From an uncultured Acidimicrobiales bacterium (lineage in GTDB: Bacteria; Actinomycetota; Acidimicrobiia; Acidimicrobiales; Bin134): DNA of 64,000 nucleotides. Both the position numbers and the translations under genes were made by a program. Below the pieces are notes generated by a model. It did no database searches. It was given only the letters and a program-made list of their open reading frames with translations, and was not told the DNA's origin. The stretch spans positions 1,901,954 through 1,965,953 of the forward strand of contig OX638350.1 in assembly GCA_951813325.1 (NCBI GenBank), read 5' to 3'. Of the stretch, positions 3,874 through 32,719 are shown in pieces; position 1 is the stretch's first letter; each line of letters begins with the position of its first letter.

Positions 3874-3879
3874 GGGCGG

Positions 3880-12894: not shown

Positions 12895-12927
12895 CGTGCG
12901 CCGACACCGGGTGAATGCCGCGATCTG

Positions 12928-13113
12928 ATGCCCGGAGACCGCTTGGTGTCCCGCTGGCAGAACGGCAAGCGGGTGGCCATCCGAGAGAAGCGCAAAATCG
13001 TGGTGGCAGAGGTGAAGCCGTTGAACGGGAGGACACTCGTCGAACTGGACACAGGCGAGCAGTTCAACTGCCCGTCGGGGTTGATGTTCGGCGTGGACAG
13101 GGAAACGCCATGA
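12928..13113 (+). CDS. Small hypothetical protein
   Basis: ORF track only; basic N-terminus, no recognisable domain. Confidence 0.25.
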   Translation: MPGDRLVSRWQNGKRVAIREKRKIVVAEVKPLNGRTLVELDTGEQFNCPSGLMFGVDRETP

Positions 13114-13250
13114 GCAAACCGCTGGTCAGAGCATCCATCTCACGGGCGGCGCGCTGGTAGTTGAGCCCGAGGACGAGAACCCTCGCCGCCAGTACGCGGG
13201 AACACCACGAGGGAGGAATGCAGCCTTCGGCCAGTGGATGCTCGACACGT

Positions 13251-14711
13251 TCAGTATTTGTGCCATTGGTCGCCGTGAGGAGGTCGGGTACACCTTTTTT
13301 TGCTCTTGACGCCGATGTGCTGACAGCGGCCTGTGCTCGCCGCAGATGGTGGCGGTGCTATCGGCTTGATCTGGTCTGGCAAGTCGGAATCGAACGAATT
13401 GGGAGGCAGCGGGGGGACGCCGGCCATCTGCGACAGGCCAGCGCAATGGGACGCGCGGTATTCGATCCGGTCCGCCAGCTTCCGAATCACCTCGCTGCCA
13501 GCGAATTCAGCGGAAAGCGACTGGAGCGCCTGGTCTAAGGCAGATGGAGTCTGCCTGGCCATGTCCTCTGCCCTGGCAACGGCCTCCTCGCCGTCGCAAC
13601 CCATCGACTCCGCCGTCTCGTGCCATGCCGAATGCCTGTCGGCTTTGGCCACCGTGTACTTCTTCCCGATCTTCATGGCCAGCTTCGTCCTGTTGACCGA
13701 ATGCCAGTCAGGCTCGTAGGGGAGCACAGAGGTGATGTCGTACAGGGGGGCGAACCGCACCGTGCCCCCCCTCAACAGGAAAGAATAGTTCTTGGCGTGG
13801 GCATCGGTCCCGACGATGATCCAGTTGTAAATCAGAGCATCCAGGAACCTGTGGGCATCGCTGTCGGGTTGGGAGCTGTGCTTTCTGATCGACTCCGCGA
13901 TCTGTTGCGGCGAGGGGCCGCCGTCGCCTTGGTATTTGTCGTCGGGGTGGACCCCCAGTGCCTGGCACATGTCCTCTTGGTGGATTCTGGCCGTTTGCCC
14001 GTCCGCGCCAGCAAAGCGGTCGAAGCGACTGATGACGATGCTCTGGATCGGCCCGAAGCTGGCTATCTGGGTTTGAACCGCCAGCAGCCCCAGGTTCGAT
14101 GCTGTTTGCAGGCATACATGCTCATTCAACGCCTGGTCCGGCAAGTCCGGGTCATTCATCGTCGGCTTGATGATGTGCGTGCTCGGCTCCGCACCCATTG
14201 GAATTCCGTACTTCCCCCCAGAGAACACGACGGCCGTTTTCGCTTGAGCCCCAGAGAGGGAGAAACGCCCAAAGTTGCTGCTTTCTGGCCCGTGCCAAGT
14301 CGTTCTGTGGTCCCTGAGGCTCTTGATCAGAGTGACGAGCCGCTCCTCCGTCAGCCAGTCAACGCTGCCTCCTCGCCCCATCAGGCCACCGACTTCATCT
14401 GCTGAGCAGAACTGCACAGCGCCAGCGCAATCATGCCCCACTGGGCTGGCCAGTATCGCTATCGCGCTGCTGCCCTTGATGCCGAACTTGCGTCGCCACT
14501 CTCTCCGCACTTCCAGGTTGTCGGGCAACAGACCCTCCAGCCAGGAGTCAACATCGTGCTGGCCCGCCACAAGCGGAATGCTCACGGAGAGCGGGGTGGA
14601 GAGCGGGTCGGCCAGGTACTCGTCAAAGTAGGAGAACGTAGCTCGGCCCGCACGACCTCCGACTGCTGCGCCTGCGGGCTTGCCATGCACGATGACTTCA
14701 AGACGGGTCAT
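13251..14711 (-). CDS. hipA: HipA-family serine/threonine kinase toxin
   Basis: HipA N-terminal domain, 'SLSGAQAK' and catalytic 'GTDAHAKNYSFLL' motifs. Confidence 0.85.
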   Translation of the reverse strand: MTRLEVIVHGKPAGAAVGGRAGRATFSYFDEYLADPLSTPLSVSIPLVAGQHDVDSWLEGLLPDNLEVRREWRRKFGIKGSSAIAILASPVGHDCAGAVQFCSADEVGGLMGRGGSVDWLTEERLVTLIKSLRDHRTTWHGPESSNFGRFSLSGAQAKTAVVFSGGKYGIPMGAEPSTHIIKPTMNDPDLPDQALNEHVCLQTASNLGLLAVQTQIASFGPIQSIVISRFDRFAGADGQTARIHQEDMCQALGVHPDDKYQGDGGPSPQQIAESIRKHSSQPDSDAHRFLDALIYNWIIVGTDAHAKNYSFLLRGGTVRFAPLYDITSVLPYEPDWHSVNRTKLAMKIGKKYTVAKADRHSAWHETAESMGCDGEEAVARAEDMARQTPSALDQALQSLSAEFAGSEVIRKLADRIEYRASHCAGLSQMAGVPPLPPNSFDSDLPDQIKPIAPPPSAASTGRCQHIGVKSKKRCTRPPHGDQWHKY

Positions 14712-14997
14712 CTGGGCCCTTTGCGAATTGGTCCAGGTGGTCGTCCAGCTGGAACCCAGATCGGTCTATCGGGTGTATGGCTAGGTCGCAGTCAAGAGCC
14801 TTCAGCAGCTTCAGCAGCGTGGATGCCTTGAGGTCGGCCCTTGCAGACTCGACCGCGGAAATTTGCGGGCGGGAAACGCCGGACCTGTCTGACAGCTCTG
14901 CCTGATTCCACCCCAACTCCTTCCGCGCCTGCCTGAGGGCAGCGCCGAGCCGAGCCGCAGAACTAAGCCCAAGTTGCACACGACGAACAGGTGTCAT
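14698..14997 (-). CDS. hipB: HipB-like XRE-family HTH antitoxin
   Basis: HTH 'LRQARKELGWNQAELSDRSGVSRPQISAVE'; overlaps hipA start by 14 nt. Confidence 0.8.
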   Translation of the reverse strand: MTPVRRVQLGLSSAARLGAALRQARKELGWNQAELSDRSGVSRPQISAVESARADLKASTLLKLLKALDCDLAIHPIDRSGFQLDDHLDQFAKGPDDPS

Positions 14998-15197
14998 TGC
15001 TGTTCCTGCCCCCTTTGTCCCCTAAGGACTACATTTCACCATTCAACATGTTTTGTAGTCTGCACATTACAATACTGTCTGAACCGCAGAATGTAAAGAG
15101 AAAGCTACAACAGCGGCTTTGCCGCGCTCACCCTGTTCGTGCGAGATTGCCCGAGCCTGCTCTCTTGATTGCCCCGACAACAGCCGGGTACCCGCAA

Positions 15198-15380
15198 TCA
15201 CCTCGTCAGCCTCTTCCCGCTCAGCGCCAAAACCAGCCCGCACACGGCATTCTCCAAGCGGGCGTTAAATTCCTGGCCTTCTTCAGTTTCCTCGCCCTTC
15301 AACGGGATGTTGCAACTGTCCCGGTCCCACTGACCCACGATCACCTCTAGATCTTCAGGGTCTATTTTCAACTCGAACAT
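15198..15380 (-). CDS. Small acidic hypothetical protein (60 aa, MFELKIDPEDLEVIVGQWDRD...)
   Basis: Internal ATG of ORF 15198-15821 located in a lower-GC patch; speculative. Confidence 0.2.
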   Translation of the reverse strand: MFELKIDPEDLEVIVGQWDRDSCNIPLKGEETEEGQEFNARLENAVCGLVLALSGKRLTR

Positions 15381-15871
15381 TGTCCTCCTCCTTCGGTCAG
15401 GGCGGCTTCCCGCCATTGTCCCGACCGATCCCCCCACCACTCCGTCTCCCGACCCCTTTGCCGTCTCCGAGCCTCCGCCGCGGCTTTGCCCGCCGGACCA
15501 GATCGGCGTGGACGGCGACGGCGACGGGAAGATCGACGCCTGCCAGGACAGAGACGAAGAAACCGCCGAGCTGCTCGACGCCGGAGCGGGTCCCGGGACA
15601 CGACAGCGAGCACCCGCCATCCACCCCAGAGCCCGTCGAGCCCGGGAACCGCACCGTGTGGACCATAGACGCGGCGACGGGCGCGCCGGTCGTGTCGCGG
15701 CTGTCGCCGCAGGGCTCGACGATACTGGCGGGAACTCAGCCCGTCGACTACATACCCGCTGCCGACCCGGTGTGTTGCGTCTGACTTCGCGCGACGGTTT
15801 CCCGGTTTTTTCAGGCCGCATGTGGCAGGGTTGAGTCGCAGGCCAAGAATGTCGCCGTCGAGGCCGAGAGG

Positions 15872-17647
15872 GTGATGGGCTGCAGCAAGGAGATGTGGCA
15901 GATGTCGTGCCTGGCCCGCCAGGGCGACCTGGGCAGATTCTCCGAGCTGTCTCCTTCGCAGCGCCGCTCGGAGCTTGTCGACCCGCTGGTGGGGGACATG
16001 TTCGACGACCTCGTGTGCGAGGTGGACGAGCTTGTCGCCGAGGAGCGCGGGGCCAGCCTCGAAGCGGCGAGCAAGCTGGCGGACGCCGAGTCCGGTGCCG
16101 ACGACCGCGCTGACGCCGAGGCCGCGCTCAAGTCTGCTGCCGCCGAGGCGAAGAAGGCGGAATCGGACCTGGCGGAGATAATCGCTTTGAACGCCCGCGT
16201 AGCCGAGCACGAGGCGGACATCTGCAGGCTGGCCGAGGCCGAGCGGGCCGAAGATGAGCTGGCCGAGACAGCAGCCCGCAGAGAGCGGCGCAAGCGGGAA
16301 GCCGAGGAATTGGAGTAGTGCATCGAGGAGCGCACGGCGCTTCTGGCCGCGTCGGAGTCCGACGTGGAGAGGCTGGCCGAGGCCGAGCGCACAGCTGGCG
16401 AAGCCCATGCTTCCGCTGCCGCCGCCAGCGAGAAGGCTCTGCGGAGGGCTGCTGAGGCAGCGAGCCCTGCCGCGGCGGCCAAGCGGCGGCTGAAAGCGCT
16501 CGTGGCCGAAGACGGGTCTGAGTGCTGGGTGTGCGGGTCGGACCTGTCCGACGACCGCAAGGACGAGCTGGTGCGCGGGATGAAGCGGGACATCCTGGTG
16601 GCGAGGAAGCGGGACGAAGCGGCGAAAGCCGCCAGGCGCAGCGACCTCTCAGAAGCGGAGCGCGCCAGGTCTCGGAAGGAGCGGTCCGCACGCGATCTGG
16701 AGAGCGAGATCGCCGCAGCGGAGGCGAAGCTGGGCGCGCTGGCCGACGAGTCGGGCGAGGCGACTGTCGCATCCGAGCTGGCCGCGGGCGCGCCCGCGCT
16801 GCGCGAGAAGGTCTCGGCGATCCCCGAGGAGGTCCGGCGTGTGATCGGCGACGGGGGAGTGGACGACAAGGAACTAGAAGCGGCCCGCCGCCGCGCCGCT
16901 TCGGCCCAGCAGTGGGTGGGGCAGGCCAAGTCGGGGGTTTCGAAGGCGAGAGCTTCCGAGAAGTCCCTGCCCGCCCTGGGCGAGGCTGCGGACGAGGCCG
17001 GGGTGTCGGAGAAGGCGGCCGACCTGTTGAAGGACTTTCTGAGGCCCGCGGGGATACCCCACCTGCTGATGTCGCGCCGCACCGCCGAGATCGAGCGGAA
17101 AGTCAACGCAGTGCTCGCTTCGCTGAGGACGGCGGGGGAGGGACGGTCCCTGGAGATGCGGTTCCGCACGTCGATGCCGAACTCGGGGAACCCCGCGCTC
17201 GGCATCGAAGTCGATCTGGGCGACGACGGGTGGAGGGACTACGCGCAGATGTCGGGCGGGATGCGGGCGAGGGTGGACATCTCGCTGAGGGTCGGGCTGT
17301 CCCAGGCGGCCGGGGTCCGGTGCAGGATGTTGATCATCGACGAGGGCGCGGCCATGCTCGACGAGGAGGGAGTCGACTCGCTGCTGGAGGTGGTCAGGGT
17401 GCTCATCGACTCGGGTTTGGTGGACTTGGTGTTCCTGGTCACCCACGACGAGCGGTTGAAGGGGACTCTGCCTGCGACGGTGGAGGTCGGCACCGACGAG
17501 GGCGCGGCGGGCACGGCCGCCTGGTGGCCACGCACACGGAGGTCCCCCGCAGGAAGGCAGCAGCATGACGCGCAGCCGCCGCCCCGCGAAGTTCACCGCT
17601 CCCCGGCGCACAGAGCGCCGAATCTGTCGGTGGCGACAACGTGGTAG
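15872..17647 (+). pseudogene. SMC/SbcC/Rad50-like ATPase remnant: coiled-coil plus C-terminal ABC signature/Walker B/D-loop/H-loop only; N-terminal Walker A head absent; internal stop at 16316
   Basis: 'MSGGMRARVDISLRVGLSQAAGVRCRMLIIDEGAAMLD...VFLVTHDERL' in ORF 16364-17647; the upstream coiled-coil ORF 15872-16318 is separated by a TAG; no Walker A in any frame upstream. Confidence 0.55.
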
Positions 17648-18030
17648 AAGCTCCGCCACTTTCGACCATCTTGAGTCGCCACCTCGACTTCGAGCCCGCG
17701 GTCCAGCTTGAGGCCCTTGTCGTTCACGCGCACACCCCACTCCCCGTTGTCCAGCCGGGCGGTGGATCCATGCCAGAGGGCCATTCCAACACGGTAGATG
17801 CGGGCGCGGACCTCTTCGCCTGACGCCCTCTGAGCGACGCGTCGTGGACGCCGCCAGCAGCGCTGTGTCGAAGCAATCACAAGCACTCCGCTGTTATCCC
17901 AGGTCAGCGGCTCGCGCGCCGCCATCGTTTGACCGCTCGTGGACACCTGGTGGACAGGCTCCAAAACTGATGTGTGCTGCATCCTCACCTGAGTCGGCTG
18001 TAGTCCCCTGCTGCCGGGCTCTTCGCACAT
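17593..18030 (-). CDS. Hypothetical protein
   Basis: ORF track only. Confidence 0.25.
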   Translation of the reverse strand: MCEEPGSRGLQPTQVRMQHTSVLEPVHQVSTSGQTMAAREPLTWDNSGVLVIASTQRCWRRPRRVAQRASGEEVRARIYRVGMALWHGSTARLDNGEWGVRVNDKGLKLDRGLEVEVATQDGRKWRSFYHVVATDRFGALCAGER

Positions 18031-18088
18031 CCGAAACCGCGTTCAGAAGAGGAAAGGCCCGGGCCGCTGATGACTGCCGTAACGCCCG

Positions 18089-18110
18089 AGAGAAGCGTTG
18101 AGAATACATG
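18089..18110. repeat. Right copy of the 18-bp direct repeat (aagcgttgagaatacatg)
   Basis: Exact match to 10677-10694. Confidence 0.7.
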
Positions 18111-18208
18111 TTATGTAAAGTTAATGGGAAGTTTCATGGCGCAATCGGCTTCGTCTGGTGTCCGATCTCGTCGTAGTTGGCGAAATCTCACACCCTTGGC
18201 GAATCGTC

Positions 18209-18553
18209 TCAGACGAGTGTCGAGTTGTCGAATGTCGGCTCGTACTTGCACGACGAGTCGGCGTAGTAGATCACCACGTCGAACCCGAGCGCATGCGGCA
18301 ACACGAAAGACGGGCAACCGGCGTCTCCGGTGCGGATCAGGTGCTGGATGTCGTCGTCGATGATCTGGGCACAGTCAAAGGCGACGAACTCGCGAATTGT
18401 CACCGGGGGGTCGGCCGATGAGAGGTGTTCCACAAGAGGCTGGAACTCTTTAAGCTCTTCTGGTGGGACGTCCTCCATCGACTCAACCCATCCAACGGCT
18501 TCCCCAACGAGCCGCTGGCCGCCCTTGCAACCCCGGACCAAAAAGACGGCCAA
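18209..18553 (-). CDS. Hypothetical protein (acidic, Cys-containing)
   Basis: ORF track; lower-GC surroundings. Confidence 0.3.
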   Translation of the reverse strand: MAVFLVRGCKGGQRLVGEAVGWVESMEDVPPEELKEFQPLVEHLSSADPPVTIREFVAFDCAQIIDDDIQHLIRTGDAGCPSFVLPHALGFDVVIYYADSSCKYEPTFDNSTLV

Positions 18554-18617
18554 CTGATCCTCTCGCTATTTTGATACCGGCCATCATGGCCGATCTGTCG
18601 CGACACTCATACTGTTT

Positions 18618-19334
18618 GTGTTCTCCCGTCGGGGCGGGTCTGACCCGAGTCGCGACCGGCCTTTTGTGCCTTTCGGCGGAGTTCACCGACCCTTGGGAGG
18701 TTCTATGACACCGAGGGGGTATCCCGCAGAGTTCCGAAAGCGTGTGGTCGATCTGGTAGAGGCGGGCCGTCCGGTCGCCCAGGTCGCGGCGGAACTGGGG
18801 ATCAGCGATCAGTCGATCTACACGTGGCGGCGGCAGGCGCGTTTCGACGCCGGCGTTGAGCCGGGCATGAGCACGGAGGAGCATGCGGAGTCAGCGGCGC
18901 TGCGAAAGCGGGCTCGCGAGCTTGAGTGTGAGTTGGCGATTCACCGGCGGGCGACTGAGCTGTTGAAGGCCGATGTCGATTCAAAATGGTCCGCAGCCAT
19001 CCGAGTGATGGCCGCGGAAGGGCTTCCGATCGAGAAGGCATGTTCCGTGTTGGGAGTGTCGGTGTCTGGCTACTACAGCTGGCTGAGGCGCCCACCGTCG
19101 GCGCGATCGATCAGACATGCGTGGTTGAGTGAGGTGGTTGGGCAGGTCCACGCCAGCTCCCGTGAGACCAACGGGGCAAAGCGAGTTCACGCGGAGTTGA
19201 CCCCTGGCCTGGGGAGGGGCCGGAACGCCGACCTGGCTACCTACGATGACACAAATGGGGGTCAAACTGTCTCAAGAACGTGGCGAACCCCAGGACGCAT
19301 TCGCCAAGTGCCCGAGAGCGGACAATTTGGCTGA
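18618..19334 (+). mobile_element. IS3-family transposase remnant: OrfA (HTH) fused in-frame to the first ~65 aa of OrfB, DDE catalytic domain missing
   Basis: 'MTPRGYPAEFRKRVVDLVEAGRPVAQVAAELGISDQSIYTWRRQ' (IS3 OrfA) then 'CSVLGVSVSGYYSWLRR...GAKRVHAEL' (OrfB N-terminus), then unrelated tail and stop. Confidence 0.7.
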
Positions 19335-19460
19335 CCGGGTCTCGCCATCGCGCTTATCGACCTGTCGCCCTTGCATGACTGCTGCCGACGCGATCAGAGT
19401 TAGACTAGGCCCCGAATTCCGCTACCGTTGTCCGCTTGGCGGACAGATCATCGACAATTG

Positions 19461-20639
19461 ATGAAGACTCCCACCGACTACGACAACCCTGGCTACGCGC
19501 GAGCCCGTGCTCTCGAACCTAATATGGCCGAGAACTACGTCGCGCACACCATGATCGGCGACCCCCTGGCTGATGCAGCGGTCGAGGTTCTCGCCACACT
19601 GAAGCGTTCGGAATCCAGCCGGATTTTCTCGGCCTACATGAGCGTCCCCGACGGGAAAGAGCTTCCTGACGCGCCACCAGAGGTCCACGCGCTCATTGAC
19701 GATGTCATCACTCCACCAGACTGGCTCGATCTTCCCGCTTTGACTGCCGGCATTCACATGTTCCATCGGAATCGAAAGATGGTTGTGGCCGGGATGCTGG
19801 CCGGAGTTCTCGTGGAGGGCTTCTCCACCAACATCAGTGAGTCGTTCTTTATTACCGGCCGTCTGCGCGACCAGGGTGTGCGGCGCCTTCAGCAAAACAA
19901 CCGCCATATGGTGGATATCTTCCTTCCCGGCGGTATGGGCCCATACGGTGACGGGTGGAGGCTCTCCTTTCGGATCCGCCTCATCCATGCCCAGGTCAGG
20001 TACCTGCTCAAGAACTCAGAGGACTGGGACGTGGATGCTCTTGGCGTTCCTTTGAGCGCAGCCCATTGCGGCTACGCGATCACCGCGTTTTCCGCTCGGC
20101 TGCTCAAGCACATGAGGAGTCTGGGAGCAGTTTTCAGCGAGGAAGAGGCCGCGAGCTTCATGGCGACGTGGCGCTATTCGGGGCTTCTCATGGGGATTCC
20201 TGAGTCGATCCTCTTCCACGGCGAAGAAGACGCTCTGAAGCTCTACGAGATCGGCACCATGTGCGAGCCAGAGCCCGGCGCTTCCTCTGTCGTTCTGGCC
20301 AACTCGCTGGTCAACTCGGCGCCCCTCGTCGTTGGCATCAACGACTCTGCCAAGGGACAGAAACTCTCGCAGTACGTCTATAAGGTGTCGCGAGCGCTCA
20401 TCGGAGACACACTGGCCAATCAGTTGAACTATCCCAAGCAGTCCACCTTCGGCGTACTCCCTTGGTTCCGCGTACAGGCCAGGTACGACCGCTTCACTCT
20501 TCGGTTCTTCCCCAAGATGGCCCGCAAGAGCAACGTTTCCAACTTCACTACGCTTTTGTCAGGATCGTGGTTCCACGACGAGGGCATCACCTACCACTTG
20601 CCCGACCATGTCTACGCCGAGGAGTCCAGCGAATGGTGA
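19461..20639 (+). CDS. DUF2236 (MpaB/Lcp-like) oxygenase family protein
   Basis: Conserved 'FFITGRLRDQGVRRLQQNNRHMVDIFLPGGMGPYGDGWRLSFRIRLIHAQVR' block shared with its paralog at 23197-24366. Confidence 0.7.
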   Translation: MKTPTDYDNPGYARARALEPNMAENYVAHTMIGDPLADAAVEVLATLKRSESSRIFSAYMSVPDGKELPDAPPEVHALIDDVITPPDWLDLPALTAGIHMFHRNRKMVVAGMLAGVLVEGFSTNISESFFITGRLRDQGVRRLQQNNRHMVDIFLPGGMGPYGDGWRLSFRIRLIHAQVRYLLKNSEDWDVDALGVPLSAAHCGYAITAFSARLLKHMRSLGAVFSEEEAASFMATWRYSGLLMGIPESILFHGEEDALKLYEIGTMCEPEPGASSVVLANSLVNSAPLVVGINDSAKGQKLSQYVYKVSRALIGDTLANQLNYPKQSTFGVLPWFRVQARYDRFTLRFFPKMARKSNVSNFTTLLSGSWFHDEGITYHLPDHVYAEESSEW

Positions 20640-20707
20640 GCGCAATCTTCTCGGGGCGACCGACCCATTGGACCGGTCGCAAGGCGGGCTCGCACTAAGG
20701 TCAATTC

Positions 20708-23155
20708 ATGTTCCGCTGGCAGGCCCGCAGAATTCAGAAGTCTCCGAGACTTGCACTCGCGAGCATCATCGCTGTGACAATCCTTCTTCTCGCCGGTTTC
20801 CTCGTCCAGGAAGCCCCCGAGGTGCCCGACCCCCTTGGTGCCTTCCTACCGTCCGGCAGCGAGTTGGCTGTAGCCGTTGACGCCGTCCAGGAGAGCTTCC
20901 CGGCATCAGGTGACACCAGGACTGTCCAAGTTCTCGCCAAAGGGCGCATTCTCGACGCCGAGGCCATTCAGGAGATGAGGGAGCTTCAGGACAGGATTTT
21001 CAGCGATCCCGAAGTCGCTCCGTTCCTCGCCGACCATCCCGTGACGGGGTACGTCCAGATCATCGAGGGGGTACTGCTCTTACAGGGCCTCAACCCGGCC
21101 TCTGCTTCCGATGCCGATATTGGGGCAGCCCTCGACCTGATGGCCAGTTCGCCAGAACTTGCCGCCCCGAGCGATTTGTTCAACAGCATCGTCAACCGGG
21201 ATGCCGCCGGTGGGCAGTACTCCGGCCTTTCTCTGATCACCCTCAAATACACCGGCGACGACGTCGGTCTGCGAGACGCACAGCTGAGGATCCACGACAT
21301 AGCGGATGCTGCAAGCTCGACTTCATTGGAATTGGCGGTTGTCAGCACAGCGGGAAACGAAGACGAGATCAACGACGTCAACCGGGTAAGCACACCTGTG
21401 CTCACACTCGGCGCTCTGGCGCTGATCGCCCTTTTGCTCACAGCCTTCTACCGCACGCAGTCAGATGTCCACATCACGATGATTGGGCTAGGCATCACCC
21501 TGGCATGGACCCTCGGTGCTCAAGCATGGCTGTCGCCCGGTGGTGCGGGCATTCTCGACCCCGACAACATCTTCATTGCGATTGTGCTGGTCCTCCTCAT
21601 CAGCTTGAGTGTGGACTATGCGCTACAGATCACGAGCCGTTATCGAGAGGCGCTGGCGCTCGAAGCAGATGAGGACGCGCCCACCCGGTCCATCGGCCAC
21701 GCGGTCAGGGAATCGGGCGTGCCGGTACTGCTCGCGGCAGGCACGACCGCTGTCAGCCTCCTCATTAACCTCACCAGCAAGTTCAGGCCGATAGCCGAAT
21801 TCGGCATACTCGCCTCCATCGGAGTCATTTCGGGCTGGATCGTGATGACCACCTTCGTACCGGCTGCCCGGTTGCTGTTGGATCGCAAGCGCGCGGCCGA
21901 TGGCCGGGAGCTGATCACTAGGCCCGTCGCAGATACCGTCCCCGGTACCGCTGCGACCCTGTCCCGGACCGCAGCGGTGATTGTGCGCCGCCCGTGGTCG
22001 ATTTTGGGCGGCGCCGTCGTGGTGACGATCCTGGCTATCTTCGCGGCGACAAGCGTCGACACAACCACCACTCCCACTGATTTCCTCCCCCGCGACTCCG
22101 ACGCGCTCGAGAACATTACTTTCATCGAAGACAGCTTCGGAGCAGGCGCCTCCACGCTCACGGTTCTCATCGAGGCCGATCTCGACACTGCTCACTCCAC
22201 CCGTGATTTACTCGATTACTCTGCGTCCCTCTCCGCTCCCGAAACGCGCCCCGAGAGTATGGTGGGCCCTCCCATCAACTCAGCGGTGATGCTGCTCTCC
22301 GACTGGGCCGATGACAGCGGGCAACCGGGTGACAAGTACGACCCAGCCATCGCGGCGGCATTCGCCGATTTGAACTCCGGCTCATCGATACCTGACGACC
22401 GGGCCCTTAGTACCTGGACACTCCTGGAGGACATCGACCCCGCGAGCTTCGCATCGGTTGTCGATCTGCGTTCCGACGGCCCTGATCGCACCATTCTCCA
22501 GATCCCAGTGGCGGCCGACAGCGCCACGCTCCTTCCTCAGCTGCTCGACGAACTCGACGATCTATGGGGTGGCGATCCCGGGCAGACTACCGCAACAGGC
22601 GGCGACACTTTGGCCGCTCTAATCAACTCAGAGCTCGGTCGCAGCCAAACCCTGACCGTTCCCCTCACCATCGCTGCGGCCATGGCAATCCTATTGCTCT
22701 ACTTCGGCATCAGCGAACGCCGTCCCTCCCTTGGAGTGATCAGCGTTCTGCCCATAGCGATGGTGGTGTTTTGGCTGTTGGCCACCATGTGGGTATTTGG
22801 GATCTCATACAACTTGGCGACAGCCCTGGTGGTGGCACTGACGATCGGTATCGGTGTGGACTACACCATCCATCTCACGCACCGGTTCATCGAGGCTGAA
22901 AAGGAACTCCGTGATTCCTCCCTTGCGCTCAGGCGCGCTATGACGACGACGGGGGGAGCGCTCGTAGCAAGTGCTCTAACCACCGCCCTTGGACTCCTGG
23001 TCCTGCTCTTCTCCCCGCTCCGGCCGATTCAGGAACTGGGGGCACTCACCTCGGCCACCATCCTATTGACGCTCATTTCCACGTTCACCGTGCTGCCTCC
23101 GTTGCTGATCCTGTGGTCTAGGTACCACCACCGCAAGGCTGCGGCGTACCAATGA
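20708..23155 (+). CDS. MMPL-family RND-type membrane transporter
   Basis: 815 aa; two 6-TM bundles each followed by a large extracytoplasmic domain; MMPL-like sequence pattern. Confidence 0.8.
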   Translation: MFRWQARRIQKSPRLALASIIAVTILLLAGFLVQEAPEVPDPLGAFLPSGSELAVAVDAVQESFPASGDTRTVQVLAKGRILDAEAIQEMRELQDRIFSDPEVAPFLADHPVTGYVQIIEGVLLLQGLNPASASDADIGAALDLMASSPELAAPSDLFNSIVNRDAAGGQYSGLSLITLKYTGDDVGLRDAQLRIHDIADAASSTSLELAVVSTAGNEDEINDVNRVSTPVLTLGALALIALLLTAFYRTQSDVHITMIGLGITLAWTLGAQAWLSPGGAGILDPDNIFIAIVLVLLISLSVDYALQITSRYREALALEADEDAPTRSIGHAVRESGVPVLLAAGTTAVSLLINLTSKFRPIAEFGILASIGVISGWIVMTTFVPAARLLLDRKRAADGRELITRPVADTVPGTAATLSRTAAVIVRRPWSILGGAVVVTILAIFAATSVDTTTTPTDFLPRDSDALENITFIEDSFGAGASTLTVLIEADLDTAHSTRDLLDYSASLSAPETRPESMVGPPINSAVMLLSDWADDSGQPGDKYDPAIAAAFADLNSGSSIPDDRALSTWTLLEDIDPASFASVVDLRSDGPDRTILQIPVAADSATLLPQLLDELDDLWGGDPGQTTATGGDTLAALINSELGRSQTLTVPLTIAAAMAILLLYFGISERRPSLGVISVLPIAMVVFWLLATMWVFGISYNLATALVVALTIGIGVDYTIHLTHRFIEAEKELRDSSLALRRAMTTTGGALVASALTTALGLLVLLFSPLRPIQELGALTSATILLTLISTFTVLPPLLILWSRYHHRKAAAYQ

Positions 23156-23196
23156 CCCTGTTTCGGCACAACGCGTCCGCCCGAGACCTCAGCGGC

Positions 23197-24366
23197 TCAC
23201 CACGGAGTCGATGCTGTGTCCTTGACTGCGTCCGGCACGCGGTAGCTGATGCCGGTGTCATCGTACACCGATCGTTGCAGCAATCCAGCGAAGTTGTTGA
23301 AGTCATGCGATGAGGCTCCCGGCATGACTCTCGAGTAGAGGATCTTGGCCTTCCGCTGCGTCCGCACAAGTGCTAGGGCACCGAGTGTCGACTGTTTCGG
23401 ATAGCCGAGCCTGTCGGCCAACTCGTTTCCGATCAACGCTCGAGAGGTCCGGTACAGAGCGCTTACCAGCCTTTTCTGTTTTGCCGGTTCGGAGATCTCA
23501 AGCAGTTCGGGAACAGAGCCAATGAGCCCGTGGGCCACTTCAGCAGACGGCTTGTCAGGCAGCGGTTCCAACAGACTGGCAACCCCTCGCATGTTCATGG
23601 CGTCCTCTTCGGTCTCGCACAGCAACACCTCGGGCACACCGAACAGCCAGGAGACATACTGCCAGATGTGCATGAAGCCATCGCTCTCCTCCTCGGTCAG
23701 CGGAACCCCCAACTTGCGCACAGATTGGAGCTGTATGCCGGACAATGCGGTTGAAGCCAGCGCCAAGTGCGCCTTGTGAATTGGCGGTCCCTCCACTGGA
23801 ACATCCCATTCATTCGAATCGAGCAGCAACCGCCGCATCTGTGCATGGATCAACCGGATGCGAATCGTCAGCTTCCAACCGTCGCCCTGGCGATCCAACC
23901 CACCGGGCAAAGTCACCTCCACGAGGTGCCTGGTGGTCTGTTTGAGCCTGCGGAGGTTTCCTGCCGTACGCCCCGTGATCCAGAACGCTTTGCCTATTCC
24001 TCCTCCCAGTCCGGTGATGAGCGAGTCCAGCACAAGCCCAACGAAGAACAAATCCGAATACTTGTAGAAAACGCGGGAACCCGCCGCGGCCCTCTCCGGG
24101 TCGTACCCGAAAGGCGGCGGACGGCTGACTTCACTGAAGAACTCTCGCAGAGCATCCGGCGCCTCTCGCATCGTCTCCTCATCGCCATTCATCCCCGCCT
24201 CAATCAGACGATGTGACTGCCCTTGACTGAAATCGGCCAGAGCTGCCATGGCTGCATCCGCCGGAGGATCGCCAGCAAGGGTGTTCTCGACATAGGCCTC
24301 GGTGAGGTCTGGATCCACTGCCTTGGCTCTCTCATAGCCTTCGACGTACAAAGACGGCATCTCCAT
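23197..24366 (-). CDS. DUF2236 (MpaB/Lcp-like) oxygenase family protein, paralog of 19461-20639
   Basis: Shares 'WITGRTAGNLRRLKQTTRHLVEVTLPGGLDRQGDGWKLTIRIRLIHAQMR' and 'GYPKQST' blocks with the paralog. Confidence 0.7.
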   Translation of the reverse strand: MEMPSLYVEGYERAKAVDPDLTEAYVENTLAGDPPADAAMAALADFSQGQSHRLIEAGMNGDEETMREAPDALREFFSEVSRPPPFGYDPERAAAGSRVFYKYSDLFFVGLVLDSLITGLGGGIGKAFWITGRTAGNLRRLKQTTRHLVEVTLPGGLDRQGDGWKLTIRIRLIHAQMRRLLLDSNEWDVPVEGPPIHKAHLALASTALSGIQLQSVRKLGVPLTEEESDGFMHIWQYVSWLFGVPEVLLCETEEDAMNMRGVASLLEPLPDKPSAEVAHGLIGSVPELLEISEPAKQKRLVSALYRTSRALIGNELADRLGYPKQSTLGALALVRTQRKAKILYSRVMPGASSHDFNNFAGLLQRSVYDDTGISYRVPDAVKDTASTPW

Positions 24367-24490
24367 GAATCAGATCTTTCTGACAGATGTTGTTCTTCGC
24401 GCCCGATCACGAGGCACGATTCCAATGTTGGGACTCTCAACATTCTACAGCGATCCGGTGATCACTGCAGCTTAGAGCCACGTCGCGTGT

Positions 24491-25204
24491 TTACAGCGCG
24501 GCTCGGCCAGCGCTGAGGCCTCCGTCAACGTAGATGACTTGGCCGGTTACGTAGCGGGCGTCGTTGGAGGCCAAGAAACCCACCACATCGGCAATGTCTT
24601 CGGGGCGGCCAGTTCGGCCTAGGGGCACAGCGCGAGCCCGCAGCTCCCCCTTGTCGCCCTCGTAGTTCACCTGGGTGCCCTCGGTTTGGATCATTCCCGG
24701 GCCAACGGCGTTGGCCCGAATACCCCGAGAGGCCAACTCAAGGGCCGTCTGCTTGGTGAAGCTCTCCACTGCGGCTTTGGACGGCGGGTAGATGCCCACT
24801 CCCGGGGAGTTGGAATAGGCCGCATTCGACGAGAGGTTGACTATGGCCGAACCCGGCCCCATCAGCGGCGCCAATGCCTGCGTGCAGTTGAATACCCCCA
24901 TCACGTTCACCTCCAGCACTCGGCGCACATCGTGGGGCGTCATAGCGTCTAGCTTGGCGAAGATCCAGATGCCGGCGTTGTTCACCAGGACGTCCACATG
25001 ATCCAGCGACTGGGCCAGGGCGGCCACTGATTCGGGATCGGAAACATCGCACTGCCGCCATTGGCCGCCGAGCATTTCCGCGGTGGCCGCGGCGGTGTTC
25101 GGACTCTGATCCACCGCCACGATCTGGTGTCCATCGGCGGTCAGGCGCTTGGAGATCGCCCGCCCGAGCCCCTGTCCCGCACCGGTTACAACTGCTAATC
25201 CCAT
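24491..25204 (-). CDS. Short-chain dehydrogenase/reductase (SDR)
   Basis: 'VVTGAGQGLGRAIS' Rossmann motif, 'NNAGI', catalytic 'YPPSKAA'; start at the internal ATG (25204). Confidence 0.8.
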   Translation of the reverse strand: MGLAVVTGAGQGLGRAISKRLTADGHQIVAVDQSPNTAAATAEMLGGQWRQCDVSDPESVAALAQSLDHVDVLVNNAGIWIFAKLDAMTPHDVRRVLEVNVMGVFNCTQALAPLMGPGSAIVNLSSNAAYSNSPGVGIYPPSKAAVESFTKQTALELASRGIRANAVGPGMIQTEGTQVNYEGDKGELRARAVPLGRTGRPEDIADVVGFLASNDARYVTGQVIYVDGGLSAGRAAL

Positions 25205-25251
25205 CGAGCCAGCATGACAGATCGACTGCGGCAGGTTGATACGTTGCCGAC

Positions 25252-26466
25252 GTGCTCCACCACCGCCATCCCTACCGCTGGGTGATGCTGGGGGCACTGT
25301 GGCTGGTGTACTTCTCCTTCGGAATAGCGGTTTTCGGCATGACTCCGCTGGTGAACGTGATCCGAGAAGACTTGGATCTGAGCAAAGGGGCCATGGGAAC
25401 GATTCTGGGGGCTTGGCCTCTGGTGTTTCTCGTTGCGGCGATGCCAGCTGGAGCACTCGTCGATCGGCTCGGACTGCGCCGCTCTCTGGGAATCGCCACC
25501 GTGATCATCTCCGCCTCCGCGCTGTTGCGTCCGGTGGTCACCAACTTCATCGGCATGTTTGGCTCGGTGGCATTGTTTGGCCTCGGCGGGCCGCTGGTTT
25601 CGGTGGGGGCCCCAAAACTGATCAGCGTCTGGTTCGACGAGGAAGAGCGAGCGCTGGCCATGGGGATCACCATGTCTGCACCGGCCATCGGCGGAGTCTT
25701 GCCCCTGGTTACCGCCAACAGCCTCCTCATGCCGGCATTCGACCAGAGCTGGCGGGCGACGCTCATGGTTTACGCCCTCATCACCGTGGCGATCATCGCT
25801 GTCTGGTTGGTTGCTGCTTCCGCCGGAGAGAAGCTCGCTCCTGGAGTGGACCGCGATGCCAATCCCGACCACGGCTTCTCCGGTGCCAGGGGCCTGTTGC
25901 GCCATCGAGCCGTCCAGCTCATGCTGATCGTGGCCCTTGGCATGTTCTTCTTCAACCACGCCCTCAATGGATGGCTGCCAACCGTGATCGAAGACCGGGG
26001 ATTCTCCAGCTCAGCGGCGGGCTACCTCGCCGGTGCGGTCACTGCCCTCAGCATCGTCGGCGCGCTGCTGGGGCCGCGCCTGATCCCAGAAAGCAGCCGG
26101 ATTGCGGTTATGGCCGGGGTTTATGCCGTGTTCGCCGCCGCCTCCATTCTGCTGTATGTGGACGTCAAGGCAGCCACCTTGGCCGGGTTGGCCATAATCG
26201 GCATGAGCAGAGGGCTGGCTGTACCGATTGCCCTTGTGGTGATGATGCAGCTCCCCGGCGTTGCGCAGCGCAATATGGGAGCGGCCGGTGGATTGTTCTT
26301 CACAGTTGGTGAAGCCGGTGGCGTAACCGGACCGATCTTGTTCGGCGTTCTCGCCGACATCGGTGGTTTCGGTGCCGGGCTCGTGCTGCTTACTGGGGTA
26401 GCCGGCCTAACCGGAATCCTGACCCTGGGCCTTCGCTCGGCAATGGCCCGCGTGAGGGACTACTAG
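25252..26466 (+). CDS. MFS transporter
   Basis: 12 predicted TM helices; MFS-like loop motifs. Confidence 0.7.
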
Positions 26467-28733
26467 GCGCCCCGACCCTGGATGAGCTCCTGCAAGGCCT
26501 CGTCATCGCTCACCAGTTTGGTCACCACTGCCTCGTCGACGTCGGCGACGACGATCTCGCCCACCTCGTCGGACACCGACGCGAAGAAGCCCAGCTCCTT
26601 CATGCCCACGGCCTGGCGATAGTTGTCCTCGGTTGGTGTGAGGTATTGGATCGACACCGCGTTGTAGCGGCGGATGAGGTACAGGTGCATGAGGGCCATA
26701 AGCCGCTTGCGGCGCAGAGCGGGGCTGTGGGTGTTCTGGTCCCGCACGGAGAGGATGGCCCGGCCACGCCGGTCGTTCAGGACTCCGAAAACCACGTTGG
26801 CCAGGTCGTTCGTGCCGCTGTAGACCACCAACTCGAGGATCTCCGAACCGGCGGTGTAGGGCCGCAGCCGGACCTTCAACTCGGCGTCGACGCTGTTGTG
26901 GGCCGCCCAGCGCTCCAGCCAGGCCTCCAGCTCGCGGGTGGGAACCTCGGTCTGCACCAGGTGCTGGAACTGGGTTGAGCCCTTGCCCATGGCTCGGGTG
27001 GTGGCGGTGCGCCCCGAGCTGGCCATGAGCGCGGCGTCCAGGCGGGGTCCGCCCACCAGGGTTTGCGGTGTCCTGTAGGGAGAGTCCACCAGGCGGAACC
27101 TGCGCTGGAGCCGGGCCAGGGCCAGCATCCCGTCCTGTTGGAGGGACGCAGCGAACTCCTCCCCCGCCATGCCGTCCACCTGGTGGCCGCCGTAGGTGAT
27201 GAAGTTGAACACGAACCCCAGGCGCCCCAACTCGGCGGGGAATTGCCGCATCTCATCCTCGGTCATTCCGGTGGTGTCCCAGTTGAACGACGGCGACAGG
27301 TTGTAGGCCAGCATCTTGCCGGGATACACCGCGTGAACAGCCTCGGCGAACTCCCGGGCATCCTCCAGGTCGGCGGTCTTGGTCTCCATCCACAAGAGGT
27401 CGCAGTACGGGGCCACGGCCAAAGACTTGGCCACCGCATAGGGGATGCCTCCCTGCACCTGGTAGTACCCCTCAGTGGTGCGGGCCACCTCAGGATCCCA
27501 GGCCACGTCCAGGCCCATCTCGACAGCCCGTTCCCGGGCGGTGTCGGTGTCGACCGAGCGGGCGAAGCCGAGCCACTCGGCGGTGTGCATTCCGAAGCTC
27601 TCCCCCTCCGATGACCGCATCGCAATCTGGTCGGCTACCGCTTGGGCATAGGTGGCCAGCCCCGATGCCCGGTGCCATGCCTCGGCCAGCGCATCAGACA
27701 CCCGGTCTACCGCGTCGTCGGCCCGGGGATCCGGCGAGGAATGGTAGGTGACCGCCGTCTTCTCGATGATCTGGTTGACGCCGGTCTGATCGAGCCATCC
27801 CATGGCCCGCTTGTAGCGGCTCTCGGGCACCGCGTAGAGCAGGTGCCCGTTCACCCCCTCCACACCGACTTCGGCGAGCCGCCGCAAAACCGCCAGGTAG
27901 GCGTCCTTGTAGGAGGGGACCGACAGCTGGGTGGCGCCCATTATGAACGGCTGGTCGCGCTCGTCGGCGCCGCCGTCCAGCAAGTTGGCCGCCTCGGCGT
28001 CGGTGCGGGCCACGATGATGCCCGACACCCCCATCACGTCGAGCTGGAATCGAGCGGCGTTCAACCGCTTGATCTGCTCATCGCACGCCACCAGCACCTT
28101 TCCCCCTTGGTGGCCGCACTTTTTGACACCGGGCTTTTGGTCCTCGATGTGGTAGCCGGGAACCCCGGCCTCCACGAAGCGGCGGACCAGATTGCGAACG
28201 TGGGGATCGCCGCCGTGGCCGGTGTCGGCGTCGGCGATGATGCTGGGAGTGAAATCCACCTCCGGAATGAACTGGCGCTCCGATGGGCTCATCCGGGATC
28301 GGGCGAACCGCTGGTTGCGATCGGCGGTCAACAGTGCCCGCACCAGGCCGGCAGCCTCGTCGGGGACCATGCTCAACGGGTAGCTGGCCAAATCGGGGCC
28401 GGGATCCTCGTGCAAAGAGCCCTTGGCCGATGTGGCCCAGCCGCCCAGATAGATGCCCTCGATCCCCGCCCGCTTCATGGCCACGGCCTGGCCCGGCGAA
28501 TAGGGGCCGAACGTGGAAATGCACCGTCGCTGGTCGAACAGCTCCCGCAACCGGGTATAGAACCGCTCGGCCGCCATCCGGGCCACCGTGTAGTCCTGGT
28601 CGATCAGCCCGCGCTGCTCCACTACTTGGCGAGCCGAGTACAGGCGGGTCACCCCCTCGAAGCGGGGCGAGGCCATCCACGCGTGGGTGGATCGAACCTC
28701 GGCATCGAATGAACCGACAACGTTGGCGGCCAT
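26463..28733 (-). CDS. aceA: Isocitrate lyase, long (ICL2/AceAb-type) form
   Basis: 756 aa; ICL signature 'KKCGHQGGK', strong similarity pattern to mycobacterial ICL2. Confidence 0.85.
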
Positions 28734-28870
28734 GGTGATACCTCTTTGGTGATGCGAAAGCGGTTGACCGGGGACACTAGCAACCGCGCGGCGGCTAACT
28801 GCACCATTATTCGCGGGAATTGCGATCCTGCTTGAGAAAACAGGCTTTTGCGGCCCTACTCTGGCGGCGC

Positions 28871-31039
28871 GTGACCTACCAGACGTTTGGAAGTGTTGAG
28901 GTGGCCGGCCCTTTGGCCGAATTGGCCACCCGCCGGCTGGCGCCGGGCACCGGTGTGGACCCTGAAAGCTTTTGGGCGGCGTTTGCCGACATGGTCCACA
29001 GAACTCGGCCGCGAATTCAGGCCTGCCGCGACGTGCGGGACGACCTCCAAGCCCGCATCGACGCCTGGCACCAAGACCCCGAGAGCCAGCCCGAGGAGGC
29101 GGCCGCCTTTTTGCGGGCCATCGGCTATCTGGTCGACGAACCCGATCCGGTGCCGGTGGCCACCGCGGGGGTCGATCCCGAGATTGCCTCGCTGTCGGGG
29201 CCGCAGCTCGTGGTTCCGGTGGACAATGCCCGCTATGCCCTCAATGCGGCCAACGCCCGCTGGGGCAGCCTCTACGACGCCTTGTACGGCACCGACGCCA
29301 TCGACGAGTCCGAGGGCGCGGGGCGGGCCGGACCGTACAACCCGGTGCGGGGACAACGGGTGATCGACCGAGTCCGGGCCTTGTTGGACCGCCATTTTCC
29401 GCTGGCCTCAGGATCGCACGCCGACGCTGGGGCCTATGCGGTGTCCGACAGCGGATTGCGGGTGGAGCTGTCCGGCAACGCATCCAGCGGGCTAGCCGAT
29501 CCTGGGCAGTTCGCCGGCTACACCGGCGAGGCATCGGCCCCCGCCACCGTGCTGCTGCGCAAGCACGGACTCCACATGGAGCTGGCCATCGATCGCGGCC
29601 ACCGGATCGGCCGGAACGATCCCGCCGGAGTGGCCGACGTGATGATGGAGTCGGCTCTCACCACCATCATGGACTTGGAGGACTCGGTGGCCGCGGTGGA
29701 CGCCGACGACAAGACCTTGGCCTACAGCAACTGGCTGGGCCTGATGCAGGGCAACCTCGCGGCGTCTTTTGCCAAAGGCGGCCGGGCCACAACCCGTCGT
29801 TTGAACCCCGACACCGCGGCGATTTCCCCATCGGGGATGCCCATGACGGTGCGGCGGCGCAGCGTCATGCTGATCCGCAGCGTCGGCCTCCATATGGACA
29901 CCGACATCGTGCGGGTGGACGCCCAGCCCGTTCCCGAGACTCTCATCGATGTGGCGATGGCCGCCTGGTGCGCCATGCACGATCTCGTCGGAAGCGGCCC
30001 CCATCGAAACAGCCGTGCCGGGTCGGTCTACATCGTGATGCCGAAGCTGCACGGTCCCCGCGAGACCGCGCTGGTGAACGAGCTGTTCACGGCAATGGAG
30101 GACATTTTGGGAATGGCTCCCAACACGCTGAAGATGGGAATCATGGACGAGGAGCGCCGCACGTCGCTGAACTTGGCTGCCTGCATCGCCGAGGCCTCCG
30201 AGCGGGTGGTGTTCATCAACACCGGGTTCTTGGACCGCACCGGCGACGACATCCACACCAGCATGGACGCCGGCCCCATGATCCCCAAAGCGGAGATCAA
30301 GACCTCGGAGTGGCTGACCGCCTACGAACAGGCCAACGTGGCTGTCGGGCTGGCCTTGGGATTGCCGGGGCACGCGCAGATCGGCAAGGGCATGTGGGCC
30401 CGGCCCGACGACATGGCCGCCATGTTGGACGAGAAGATCGGCCATCCCCAAGCGGGGGCGTCCACCGCATGGGTCCCCTCCCCCACTGCGGCCACCCTTC
30501 ACTCGCTGCACTATCTCGAGACCGACGTGGCTGCTCGCCAGGCCGAGTTGGCGGCAACGCCATGCGACCGCGACGCCGCCGTGCAGGCCATGCTGACGCC
30601 GGCGGTGCTCCCGCCCGACCGCGAGCTGTCCCCCGCGGCGATCCAGCGGGAATTGGACAACAACGCCCAGGGCATTCTGGGCTACGTGACCCGGTGGGTG
30701 GGCCAAGGGGTGGGCTGCTCCAAGGTGCCCGACATCGACGACGTCGCCCTGATGGAAGACCGGGCCACGCTGAGGATCTCCTCCCAGCACATCGCCAACT
30801 GGCTCCACCACGGCCTGCTGTCCGAAGAGCAAGTTGTCGAGGCCATGCGGCGAATGGCCGCCGTGGTTGACGGCCAGAACGCCGACGACCCCGACTATGA
30901 CCCCATGAGCCGCGATTTCGCCGCCAGCATCCCGTTTCGCGCCGCCGTGGCCCTCGTGATCGAGGGCCGCGACCAGCCCAACGGCTACACCGAGCCCATC
31001 CTCACCGCGCACCGCCGCCGCCAGAAGGCTGCCGGCTAG
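28871..31039 (+). CDS. glcB: Malate synthase G
   Basis: '[24 protein letters not shown]' and overall GlcB pattern; likely GTG start ~28871 (the ORF track frame opens at 28820). Confidence 0.85.
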
Positions 31040-32686: not shown

Positions 32687-32719
32687 TGGCGAGTCCTTTC
32701 GGGTCTATCTGGATATGGG

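Follow-up and report, generated by a model that had tools for sequence, protein, structure and literature searches.

The question raised by the locus considered here is whether genes of two oxygenases placed on either side of a membrane transporter constitute a functional unit or stand together by accident of descent. The locus lies within a 64,000-nt stretch of contig OX638350.1 from an uncultured Acidimicrobiales bacterium (hereafter the window, to which all coordinates refer) and comprises two paralogous genes of the MpaB/Lcp family, designated DUFa and DUFb, separated by the gene of an RND-superfamily transporter, RND'; homologous loci retrieved from other genomes and metagenomes are denoted by L-numbers (L002, L080 and so on). 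The reading favoured below, which we regard as having about an even chance of being correct, is that the oxygenases cleave hydrophobic olefins, probably terpenoids, in the service of catabolism or detoxification, and that this cleavage is coupled to RND transport. A first-pass annotation, made from the same DNA, had proposed a unit for oxidative remodelling and export of lipids or isoprenoids; the oxygenase-transporter unit withstood the comparison, while remodelling and export are disfavoured by the catabolic character of neighbouring genes, even if export as such may still take place.

DUFa and DUFb can be aligned end to end with 39% identity (BLASTP E = 4e-85), and both surpass the cutoff of 23 bits set for Pfam PF09995 (MPAB_Lcp_cat, formerly DUF2236), scoring 50.9 and 65 bits, respectively, which upholds the assignment to DUF2236 (MpaB/Lcp-like) proteins suggested initially. 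When DUFa was searched against sequences of the PDB, entries for the rubber oxygenase Lcp of Streptomyces sp. K30 were the only relatives, and its HMMER alignment to 5O1L puts H176, R173 and R142 on H198 (the proximal haem ligand), R195 and R164 of Lcp. The proximal histidine and both arginines are invariant in the subfamily alignments (26 and 21 sequences). The AlphaFold2 model of DUFa (pLDDT 87.8) was matched by Foldseek to Lcp with E = 4e-8 and a TM-score of 0.63-0.67 over 353-368 columns, revealing an all-helical globin-like fold, and the next match, trans-anethole oxygenase (TAO, 8S1J), is much farther away (E = 3e-3, TM-score 0.45). Family, fold and haem-ligand residues may be considered established. 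The distal residues deviate: Lys167 and Thr168 of Lcp are represented by Q145 and N146 in DUFa, and by Q and T in the DUFb motif RRLKQTTRH (aligned via DUFa), so that lysine is absent from both paralogues and Thr168 is kept only in DUFb. A peculiarity of another kind was observed in P0200, a 451-aa homologue of DUFa with an internal duplication of ~60 residues across the RRL...RIRxxHA haem-ligand region, which may be genuine or else an artefact of assembly.

Neither a twin-arginine nor a hydrophobic signal was found at the N-termini of DUFa (MKTPTDYDNPGY...) and DUFb (MEMPSLYVEGYE...). Hydropathy profiles are devoid of transmembrane-like segments in DUFa and contain one internal hydrophobic helix only in DUFb; neither protein begins with a hydrophobic segment. 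Since both signal peptide and N-terminal anchor are lacking, the two enzymes are cytoplasmic, unlike the secreted Lcp or MpaB', which is bound to the endoplasmic reticulum (ER). Members of the subfamily carry a C-terminal tail Y.(L/M)PDH..(A/D)E.S..W, which ends exactly at the stop codon with an invariant final Trp (20574-20636 in DUFa, 23200-23262 in DUFb), is seen as well in homologues of L080-L162 and is modelled with reduced confidence (pLDDT 60-73); this tail could be a docking peptide. All three genes of the module are intact and evolve under purifying selection, with dN/dS of 0.13-0.18 for DUFa and 0.13-0.26 for DUFa, RND' and DUFb taken together. The GC content of DUF2236 genes is 3-5 points lower than that of their flanks in 16/16 loci tabulated. 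A tblastn search of plasmids with DUFb returned only matches of other subfamilies with identity of ≤30% and no annotated cultured example.

RND' is recognised by Pfam MMPL in two matched stretches (135 bits), and the hydropathy scan delineates ~12 transmembrane-like segments with two large loops at ~35-228 and ~451-649. The Asp-Tyr pairs D303-Y304 (SVDYALQ) and D718-Y719 (GVDYTIH), belonging to the TM4/TM10 motifs, are invariant in 26 homologues. Judging from these features, RND' does look like a functional RND permease and probably uses protons to drive transport of hydrophobic molecules. The best NCBIfam model is HAE3 (TIGR00921; 197 bits, E = 4e-58, under the cutoff of 352), and the models of other subfamilies are missed widely: TIGR00833 (MMPL/actII) with 135 bits vs 875, MmpL3 with 35 vs 1400 and two HpnN models with 125 vs 752 and 80 vs 1100. 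The best sequence match in the PDB, MmpL3, gains only 39 bits, which is level with Patched and HpnN (range 25-40 bits). Orthology to MmpL was therefore rejected, and from the originally proposed MMPL exporter only the MMPL-domain RND fold is retained, HAE3 being the nearest type. RND' shares 54-56% identity with the RND found at the equivalent place in most relatives, as against 75-77% with RNDs of L002, L003, L004 and L042; exact look-up of its sequence gave no identical protein recorded.

Conservation of the oxygenase-RND linkage was assessed by scanning one genome per GTDB species with the RND alignment, which yielded 73 loci, nearly all from Acidimicrobiia or assigned to an unclassified bacterium; proteins of the window were mapped onto them in order to define locus types. 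In type I (~23 loci) DUFa is followed, usually over a 42-bp gap, by RND, then by genes for a short-chain dehydrogenase/reductase (SDR, minus strand), a major facilitator superfamily (MFS) transporter (plus), isocitrate lyase (ICL, minus) and malate synthase (plus). DUFa orthologues in these loci are 82-90% identical, SDR adjoins RND in almost all of them (L038 is devoid of it), ICL adjoins the module in every type I locus long enough to show it, and the DUFa/SDR/MFS/ICL backbone is syntenic in ~28 genomes. Type II (12 loci) is a co-directional array of genes for a sCache-like protein, aldehyde dehydrogenase (ALDH), a DUF2236 protein, acyl-CoA dehydrogenase (ACAD) and RND, with a 3-hydroxyisobutyrate-dehydrogenase-like (HIBADH-like) gene, YceI, a two-component system and enoyl-CoA hydratase (ECH) downstream. 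The region upstream of type II loci often houses a KshA-like Rieske oxygenase, a second RND (35% identical) and a 675-aa P450-GPP34 fusion (L076 1-5085; L078 1-2141), with a CMAS/sterol-methyltransferase-like gene in L078 besides; this unusual gene set of L076 and L078 hints at sterol or cyclic-lipid metabolism. In a stand-alone clade (13 loci) RND is surrounded by housekeeping genes and no DUF2236 gene is close to it; a more distant RND (~35% identity) is flanked by SDRs.

For counting, 53 loci with RND identity of at least 53% and adequate flank were used. A DUF2236 gene was found at a distance of ≤3 kb in 40/53 of them, within 150 bp in 29 and within 1.2-2.8 kb in another 11, and in none of the remaining 13. 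A rough chance estimate, which is not a computed control, comes to ~2% per random 8-kb window if ten such genes are assumed in ~3.5 Mb; the pairing is far beyond chance expectation. All-vs-all clustering of neighbouring open reading frames (ORFs), noisy from antisense ORFs in GC-rich DNA, likewise returned RND genes as the most recurrent neighbour.

The two partners also diverged in concert. Neighbour-joining trees of RNDs and of DUF2236 proteins agree in their paralogous clades: DUFa is the counterpart of type I RNDs, type II oxygenases are that of type II RNDs, and DUFb is that of RND'. Distance matrices of RNDs and nearest DUF2236 proteins correlate with a Mantel r of 0.90 (0/2000 permutations as high), and this value falls to 0.48 when RND' is partnered with DUFa instead of DUFb. 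DUFb is hence predicted from this co-divergence to be the cognate partner of RND', and RND'-DUFb to be the functional pair of the window. The initial picture of DUFa and DUFb as equal flanks of one transporter has to be abandoned, as DUFb co-diverges with RND' and the normal partner RND of DUFa is displaced. Comparison of the window with relatives by blastn exposes three blocks with edges matching gene borders: nucleotide identity is 86-88% for DUFa (to L002 and L003), 75-77% for the RND'-DUFb segment, which behaves as one unit, and 93-95% for SDR-MFS. The dS to L002/L003 reaches 0.7-1.2 in the RND'-DUFb block vs 0.39-0.48 in DUFa. The order and orientation of genes vary as well, being DUFa> RND'> <DUFb <SDR in the window, DUFa> DUFb> <RND' <SDR in L003 and L004 and RND'> <DUFb DUFa> <SDR in L002, while in L042 and L083 a pair of RND'-DUFb type is located in the type II locus. 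The usual type I partner RND of DUFa is absent from the genome under study. We conclude from these alignments that an RND'-DUFb cassette has taken the place of the resident type I RND in the window and in three relatives, with DUFa left intact, so that the window combines one resident oxygenase with an incoming oxygenase-transporter pair. Repeats that might assist inversion or transposition were sought at the cassette borders, and only short matches of chance level were encountered. In L009 a 420-bp 3' remnant of type I DUFa (8121-8540), 88% identical to the window, persists just upstream of a divergent DUF2236 gene with 67% protein identity to DUFa, implying that the site swaps genes repeatedly.

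Linkage is observed beyond Acidimicrobiia too. The metagenome scan with the DUFb-family alignment provided 80 loci, 38 of which have at least 3 kb on both sides; an RND-superfamily gene is present at ≤3 kb in 18/38 and at ≤300 bp in 10/38. Taken with the genome loci, the pairing is therefore kept beyond this genome, and the outcome named in the first-pass annotation as refuting it, a lack of such conservation, is clearly not borne out. No fewer than three subfamilies are represented among partner RNDs: HAE3/sterol-sensing (Ame-like), high-scoring MMPL and AcrB type. A DUFa-type gene accompanies a genuine DUFb-type gene in 12/14 loci with usable flank, which makes the trio of two paralogues and RND a recurring architecture; such DUFa-like, RND and DUFb-like trios are found in L080, L082, L083, L084 and L088. 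In L080 (a 6.4-Mb genome, GC 0.58) they are arranged as DUFa-like > RND > DUFb-like > DUF1329 > DUF1302, and in L082 a probable outer-membrane protein precedes DUFa-like, DUFb-like and RND genes, the RNDs of both loci being only ~23-24% identical to RND'. The lineage of L080, L082 and L163 was judged by gene content only, namely DUF1302/DUF1329, the outer-membrane-like protein and Tol-Pal genes. In L163 (a 2.5-Mb genome) three tandem DUF2236 genes, two DUFb-like and one DUFa-like, occupy positions 8001-11664 beside a Tol-Pal cluster, with no RND within 8 kb.

As for the host, close homologues of RND' (54-79% identity) and DUFa (59-92%) come exclusively from metagenome-assembled genomes (MAGs) of Acidimicrobiia, many of which bear the name Candidatus Poriferisocius or were obtained from sponges; NCBI places Candidatus Poriferisocius in the family Candidatus Hopanoidivoransaceae, order Acidimicrobiales. 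The genome is that of an Acidimicrobiales sponge symbiont, Candidatus Poriferisocius-like. Mycobacterial origin was ruled out, as close homologues of the RND and both oxygenases are all from Acidimicrobiia MAGs, and the mycobacterial mmpL/mmpS frame, in which the locus had been discussed previously, is inapplicable to homologues from sponge-associated Acidimicrobiia and to an RND' failing the MmpL models.

The IS3 remnant upstream of DUFa (Table 1) had been taken for a hint of acquisition. It covers positions 1-160 of 369 in the NCBIfam IS3 model (97 bits, cutoff 160). Comparison with L075 demonstrates that genes of the left flank (a T2SSE/pilus-like cluster) map to window positions 2006-8779; the last of them, a 464-aa pilus-cluster gene, is truncated at ~8779 and the next one is missing. 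Since the mapping stops there, ~8780-19460 represents a 10.7-kb insertion with the IS3 remnant at its right end. The insertion is a separate event that marks the vicinity of the module and not its acquisition. Recent horizontal acquisition of the whole cluster, considered in view of IS3 and the GC dip, was ruled out by backbone synteny and by the low GC, which is a trait of the DUF2236 family.

All ORFs called in the first-pass annotation are present where it placed them, with the paralogues flanking the transporter and SDR and MFS adjoining (Table 1). The ORF of DUFa opens at TTG 19428, yet homologues begin at ATG 19461; the start of SDR is ATG 25204, giving the 237-aa product also called in L075, and a longer ORF to 25456 is devoid of homologue support.

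Table 1. Coordinates of the oxygenase-transporter module and of the features surrounding it in the window.
Feature	Position	Strand	Description
Helicase-C ORF	11207-12706		Inside insertion
hipA	13251-14711	-	Toxin-antitoxin pair with hipB; inside insertion
hipB	14698-14997	-	Toxin-antitoxin pair with hipA; inside insertion
GC-rich ORFs	15.3-17.7 kb		No Pfam match; inside insertion
IS3 transposase remnant	~18706..19230	+	OrfA helix-turn-helix and N-terminal OrfB, without DDE domain; outside module
DUFa	19461..20639	+	392 aa; MpaB/Lcp family PF09995, putative haem-b alkene-cleaving oxygenase, type I paralogue
RND'	20708..23155	+	815 aa; RND-superfamily permease, Pfam MMPL and sterol-sensing domain
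DUFb	23197..24366	-	389 aa; MpaB/Lcp paralogue, convergent with RND'
RND'-DUFb cassette	20708-24370		Block of RND' and DUFb
SDR	24491..25204	-	237 aa; Pfam adh_short_C2, 202 bits
MFS transporter	25252..26466	+	Pfam MFS_1, 120 bits; divergent from SDR; conserved type I member
Isocitrate lyase, long form	26463..28733	-	756 aa; Pfam ICL, 408 bits; NCBIfam isocitrate lyase, 427 bits
Malate synthase G	28820..31039	+	Pfam MS_TIM-barrel, 194 bits, and MSG insertion domain; divergent from ICL

SDR is a candidate carbonyl/alcohol oxidoreductase for the cleavage products, and ICL with malate synthase G make up a glyoxylate-shunt pair adjoining the module. The MFS protein is 98-100% identical to its counterparts in L002, L003 and L022, with dS of only 0.13-0.19, in contrast to the neighbouring isocitrate lyase gene, whose dS to the same genomes is ~0.5; so low a divergence resembles the trace of local recombination or of an allele that swept recently. 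Farther downstream, beyond malate synthase, lies a 905-aa ORF (31874-34591) in which the N- and C-terminal domains of FrhB/FdhB are joined to a 4Fe-4S dicluster domain; it is overlapped by a minus-strand ORF (31316-32686) having a Band_7/SPFH domain. The hairpin in the DUFa-RND' spacer (20656-20680) is as stable as shuffled sequence (z = 0.01), the promoter/terminator scan of 19200-25400 detected nothing above shuffled expectation, and Rfam and tRNA scans gave no match in the region, tRNA-Gln at 46281-46355 being the sole hit.

What chemistry may be expected from the two oxygenases is suggested by their characterised relatives. Lcp, the fungal MpaB' of the mycophenolic acid pathway, TAO and Gordonia Nro1 are haem-b proteins cleaving C=C bonds to carbonyl products (PMC12724181; PMC5522427), and the generalisation covers these four, which are the characterised relatives found. 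Lcp (5O1L/5O1M) has in common with DUFa the PF09995 domain, the fold and the proximal His with two Arg, and cleaves isoprenoid C=C to leave aldehyde and ketone ends. It shares only 16% identity, is secreted and acts on an extracellular polymer; DUFa and DUFb, in contrast, are devoid of a signal peptide, lack the distal Lys167 and possess the extra conserved C-terminal tail. Lcp genes are not known to pair with RND transporters, and the literature searches brought up no article reporting it. MpaB/MpaB', TAO and Nro1 belong to the same haem-b superfamily and cleave alkenes in small or polymeric lipophilic substrates; MpaB' is an ER-anchored biosynthetic enzyme, unlike DUFa and DUFb with no N-terminal membrane anchor, TAO and Nro1 (~300-320 aa) are devoid of the N- and C-terminal extensions of DUFa/DUFb, and none of MpaB', TAO and Nro1 is described within a transporter module.

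On the side of the transporter, Castellaniella defragrans has, within a monoterpene-catabolism island, the HAE3 RND system AmeABCD, which is needed for terpene tolerance and growth; the article describing it makes no mention of a DUF2236 oxygenase in the ame cassette (PMC6394551). AmeABCD is the nearest precedent for the module, and L080 carries AmeA-like (DUF1302) and AmeB-like (DUF1329) genes beside its DUF2236-RND-DUF2236 trio. The host of the window differs in being an actinobacterium, and outer-membrane or periplasmic partners were not found beside the module: the tested ORFs adjoining it contain none of the Pfam families typical of AmeABCD partners (DUF1302, DUF1329 LolA-like, BNR/COG4447), and DUF1329 and DUF1302 occur only in the distant relatives of L080 type. 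In Pseudomonas, co-fitness on fatty esters has been observed for DUF1302, DUF1329, BNR and RND genes, whose role is disputed. HpnN and mycobacterial MmpL proteins resemble RND' in having 12 transmembrane segments, Asp-Tyr proton-relay pairs and two large loops that face outward; bulky lipids are removed by them from the cytoplasmic membrane, and some MmpLs work with cytoplasmic partners. Transporters of MmpL4/5 type, however, pair with mmpS, whereas neighbours of RND' are DUF2236 genes with no mmpS, in a host that is not mycolate-producing, and shc/hpn genes expected in the HpnN context were not recognised among the neighbours tested. Literature on DUF2236, MpaB with RND/MMPL, Poriferisocius and Hopanoidivorans offered no description of an oxygenase-RND pairing. 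The families of the parts are thus known, and catabolic or tolerance islands including a HAE3-type pump are an already-known setting, while for the co-evolving MpaB/Lcp-RND pairing and the DUFa/DUFb/RND trio no published description was found.

Reasoning from these relatives and neighbours, we infer the chemistry, the substrate class and the catabolic direction, together with any physical coupling and the direction of transport, as follows. Cytoplasmic DUFa and DUFb, with haem b, would use O2 to cut C=C, leaving aldehyde and ketone fragments; the lipophilic substrate would most likely be an isoprenoid lipid that the sponge offers, such as a terpenoid. RND', driven by protons, would handle the same class of compounds in the membrane, either limiting the membrane load of toxic substrate or products or shuttling them between membrane and enzyme. 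SDR may then interconvert the resulting carbonyls and alcohols, and the fragments, after conversion to acids, would enter beta-oxidation to acetyl-CoA (and propionyl-CoA from methyl-branched chains), with acetyl-CoA assimilated by the adjoining glyoxylate shunt. Cleavage for catabolism is favoured by the C=C-cleaving relatives, by the glyoxylate shunt located here and by the type II operon with ALDH and ACAD, in which the oxygenase gene stands between ALDH and ACAD genes, near ECH, a hydroxyacid dehydrogenase of branched-chain type and the polyisoprenoid-binding YceI fold. Several paralogous pairs in closely related genomes and swapped cassettes fit adaptation to varied host-derived terpenoids of the sponge.

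A number of observations weigh against this proposal. The window locus itself is devoid of ALDH, ACAD or acyl-CoA ligase genes, and the catabolic case leans on a paralogous locus and on glyoxylate-shunt adjacency, which is documented solely in a single family-level clade and might be a relic of history. Export is the usual direction of RND pumps, and this suits detoxification or export better than nutrient acquisition. The loss of the Lcp Lys167 (Q145 in DUFa) makes the active site unlike that of Lcp, so that the chemistry might differ too. Linkage is not universal, given the 13 related RNDs with no DUF2236 nearby as well as L081, L085 and L163, where DUF2236 genes stand without RND, and L164 with an MMPL fragment only. 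Part of the mirror-tree correlation must reflect shared species history, even if paralogue structure dominates.

The same proteins might instead operate in biosynthesis, as in the first-pass annotation, the oxygenases tailoring the cell's own isoprenoid or envelope lipid (for instance, by cutting a carotenoid or polyprenyl chain) and RND exporting the product to the surface, much as mycobacterial MmpLs do with lipids produced by partner enzymes. We consider this rather unlikely. In its favour, the RND/MMPL proteins characterised so far (HpnN, MmpL3/4/5) carry lipids outward, MpaB' is a biosynthetic tailoring enzyme, the tight 42-bp operon gap fits coupled synthesis and export, and the stand-alone RND clade among housekeeping genes suggests an ancestral cell-envelope role. 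Genes for prenyltransferases, terpene cyclases, carotenoid synthesis, polyketide synthases or acyltransferases are nevertheless not recurrent neighbours in ~150 loci, where those that do recur are catabolic (ALDH, ACAD, ECH, HIBADH-like, ICL/malate synthase), and the multiplicity of paralogous pairs together with cassette swaps resembles adaptation to external substrates rather than a fixed envelope pathway. Quite improbable appears the supposition that the DUF2236 proteins are non-catalytic accessory subunits or sensors, binding haem or lipid and loading or gating RND. Retention of the entire catalytic-domain fold, along with the proximal His and the two Arg, speaks for an enzyme, and so do the position of the type II gene between ALDH and ACAD, as expected of an aldehyde producer, and the many DUF2236 homologues with no RND nearby; on the other hand, co-divergence with RND is strong, the C-terminal tail with its invariant Trp might dock, the distal-site residues of Lcp are not kept, and mycobacterial MmpLs do have cytoplasmic accessory partners, MmpL5-AcpM being an example.

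The possibility that adjacency is meaningless, that is, neighbourhood by descent in one clade with the sandwich as a by-product of rearrangement, is disfavoured as highly improbable. Most type I loci do originate in a single, strongly syntenic family-level clade, and the 13 related RNDs as well as several DUF2236 genes are solitary; adjacency, however, outlives rearrangement, as is evident from three cassette arrangements and the RND-then-DUF order in L005, it recurs with no fewer than three unrelated RND subfamilies, the genomes ranging in GC from 0.56 to 0.69 and some having outer-membrane genes, and the RND and DUF2236 trees are congruent at the level of paralogues. At the opposite extreme, the haem dioxygenases, often as a DUFa/DUFb pair, might dock on RND via the ...PDH..AE.S..W tail and form a coupled machine that extracts, cleaves and disposes of an olefinic membrane lipid, spread over several phyla and RND subfamilies and diversified by cassette swapping in sponge symbionts against host terpenoids; this extended version of the cleavage proposal seems distinctly unlikely.

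The bacterial MpaB/Lcp family is large, comprising 2,642 representative clusters at E <= 1e-3 in exhaustive search, with substrates known for a handful only, and HAE3-type RND transporters are likewise mostly uncharacterised. The co-evolving linkage provides a testable context for both, as the oxygenase should act on the lipid handled by the pump, and enzymes of DUFa/DUFb type might serve as alkene-cleaving biocatalysts. Several paralogous loci and cassette exchange in sponge-symbiont Acidimicrobiia point to handling of host terpenoids or sterol-like lipids, a long-suspected and poorly defined part of sponge-microbe chemistry.

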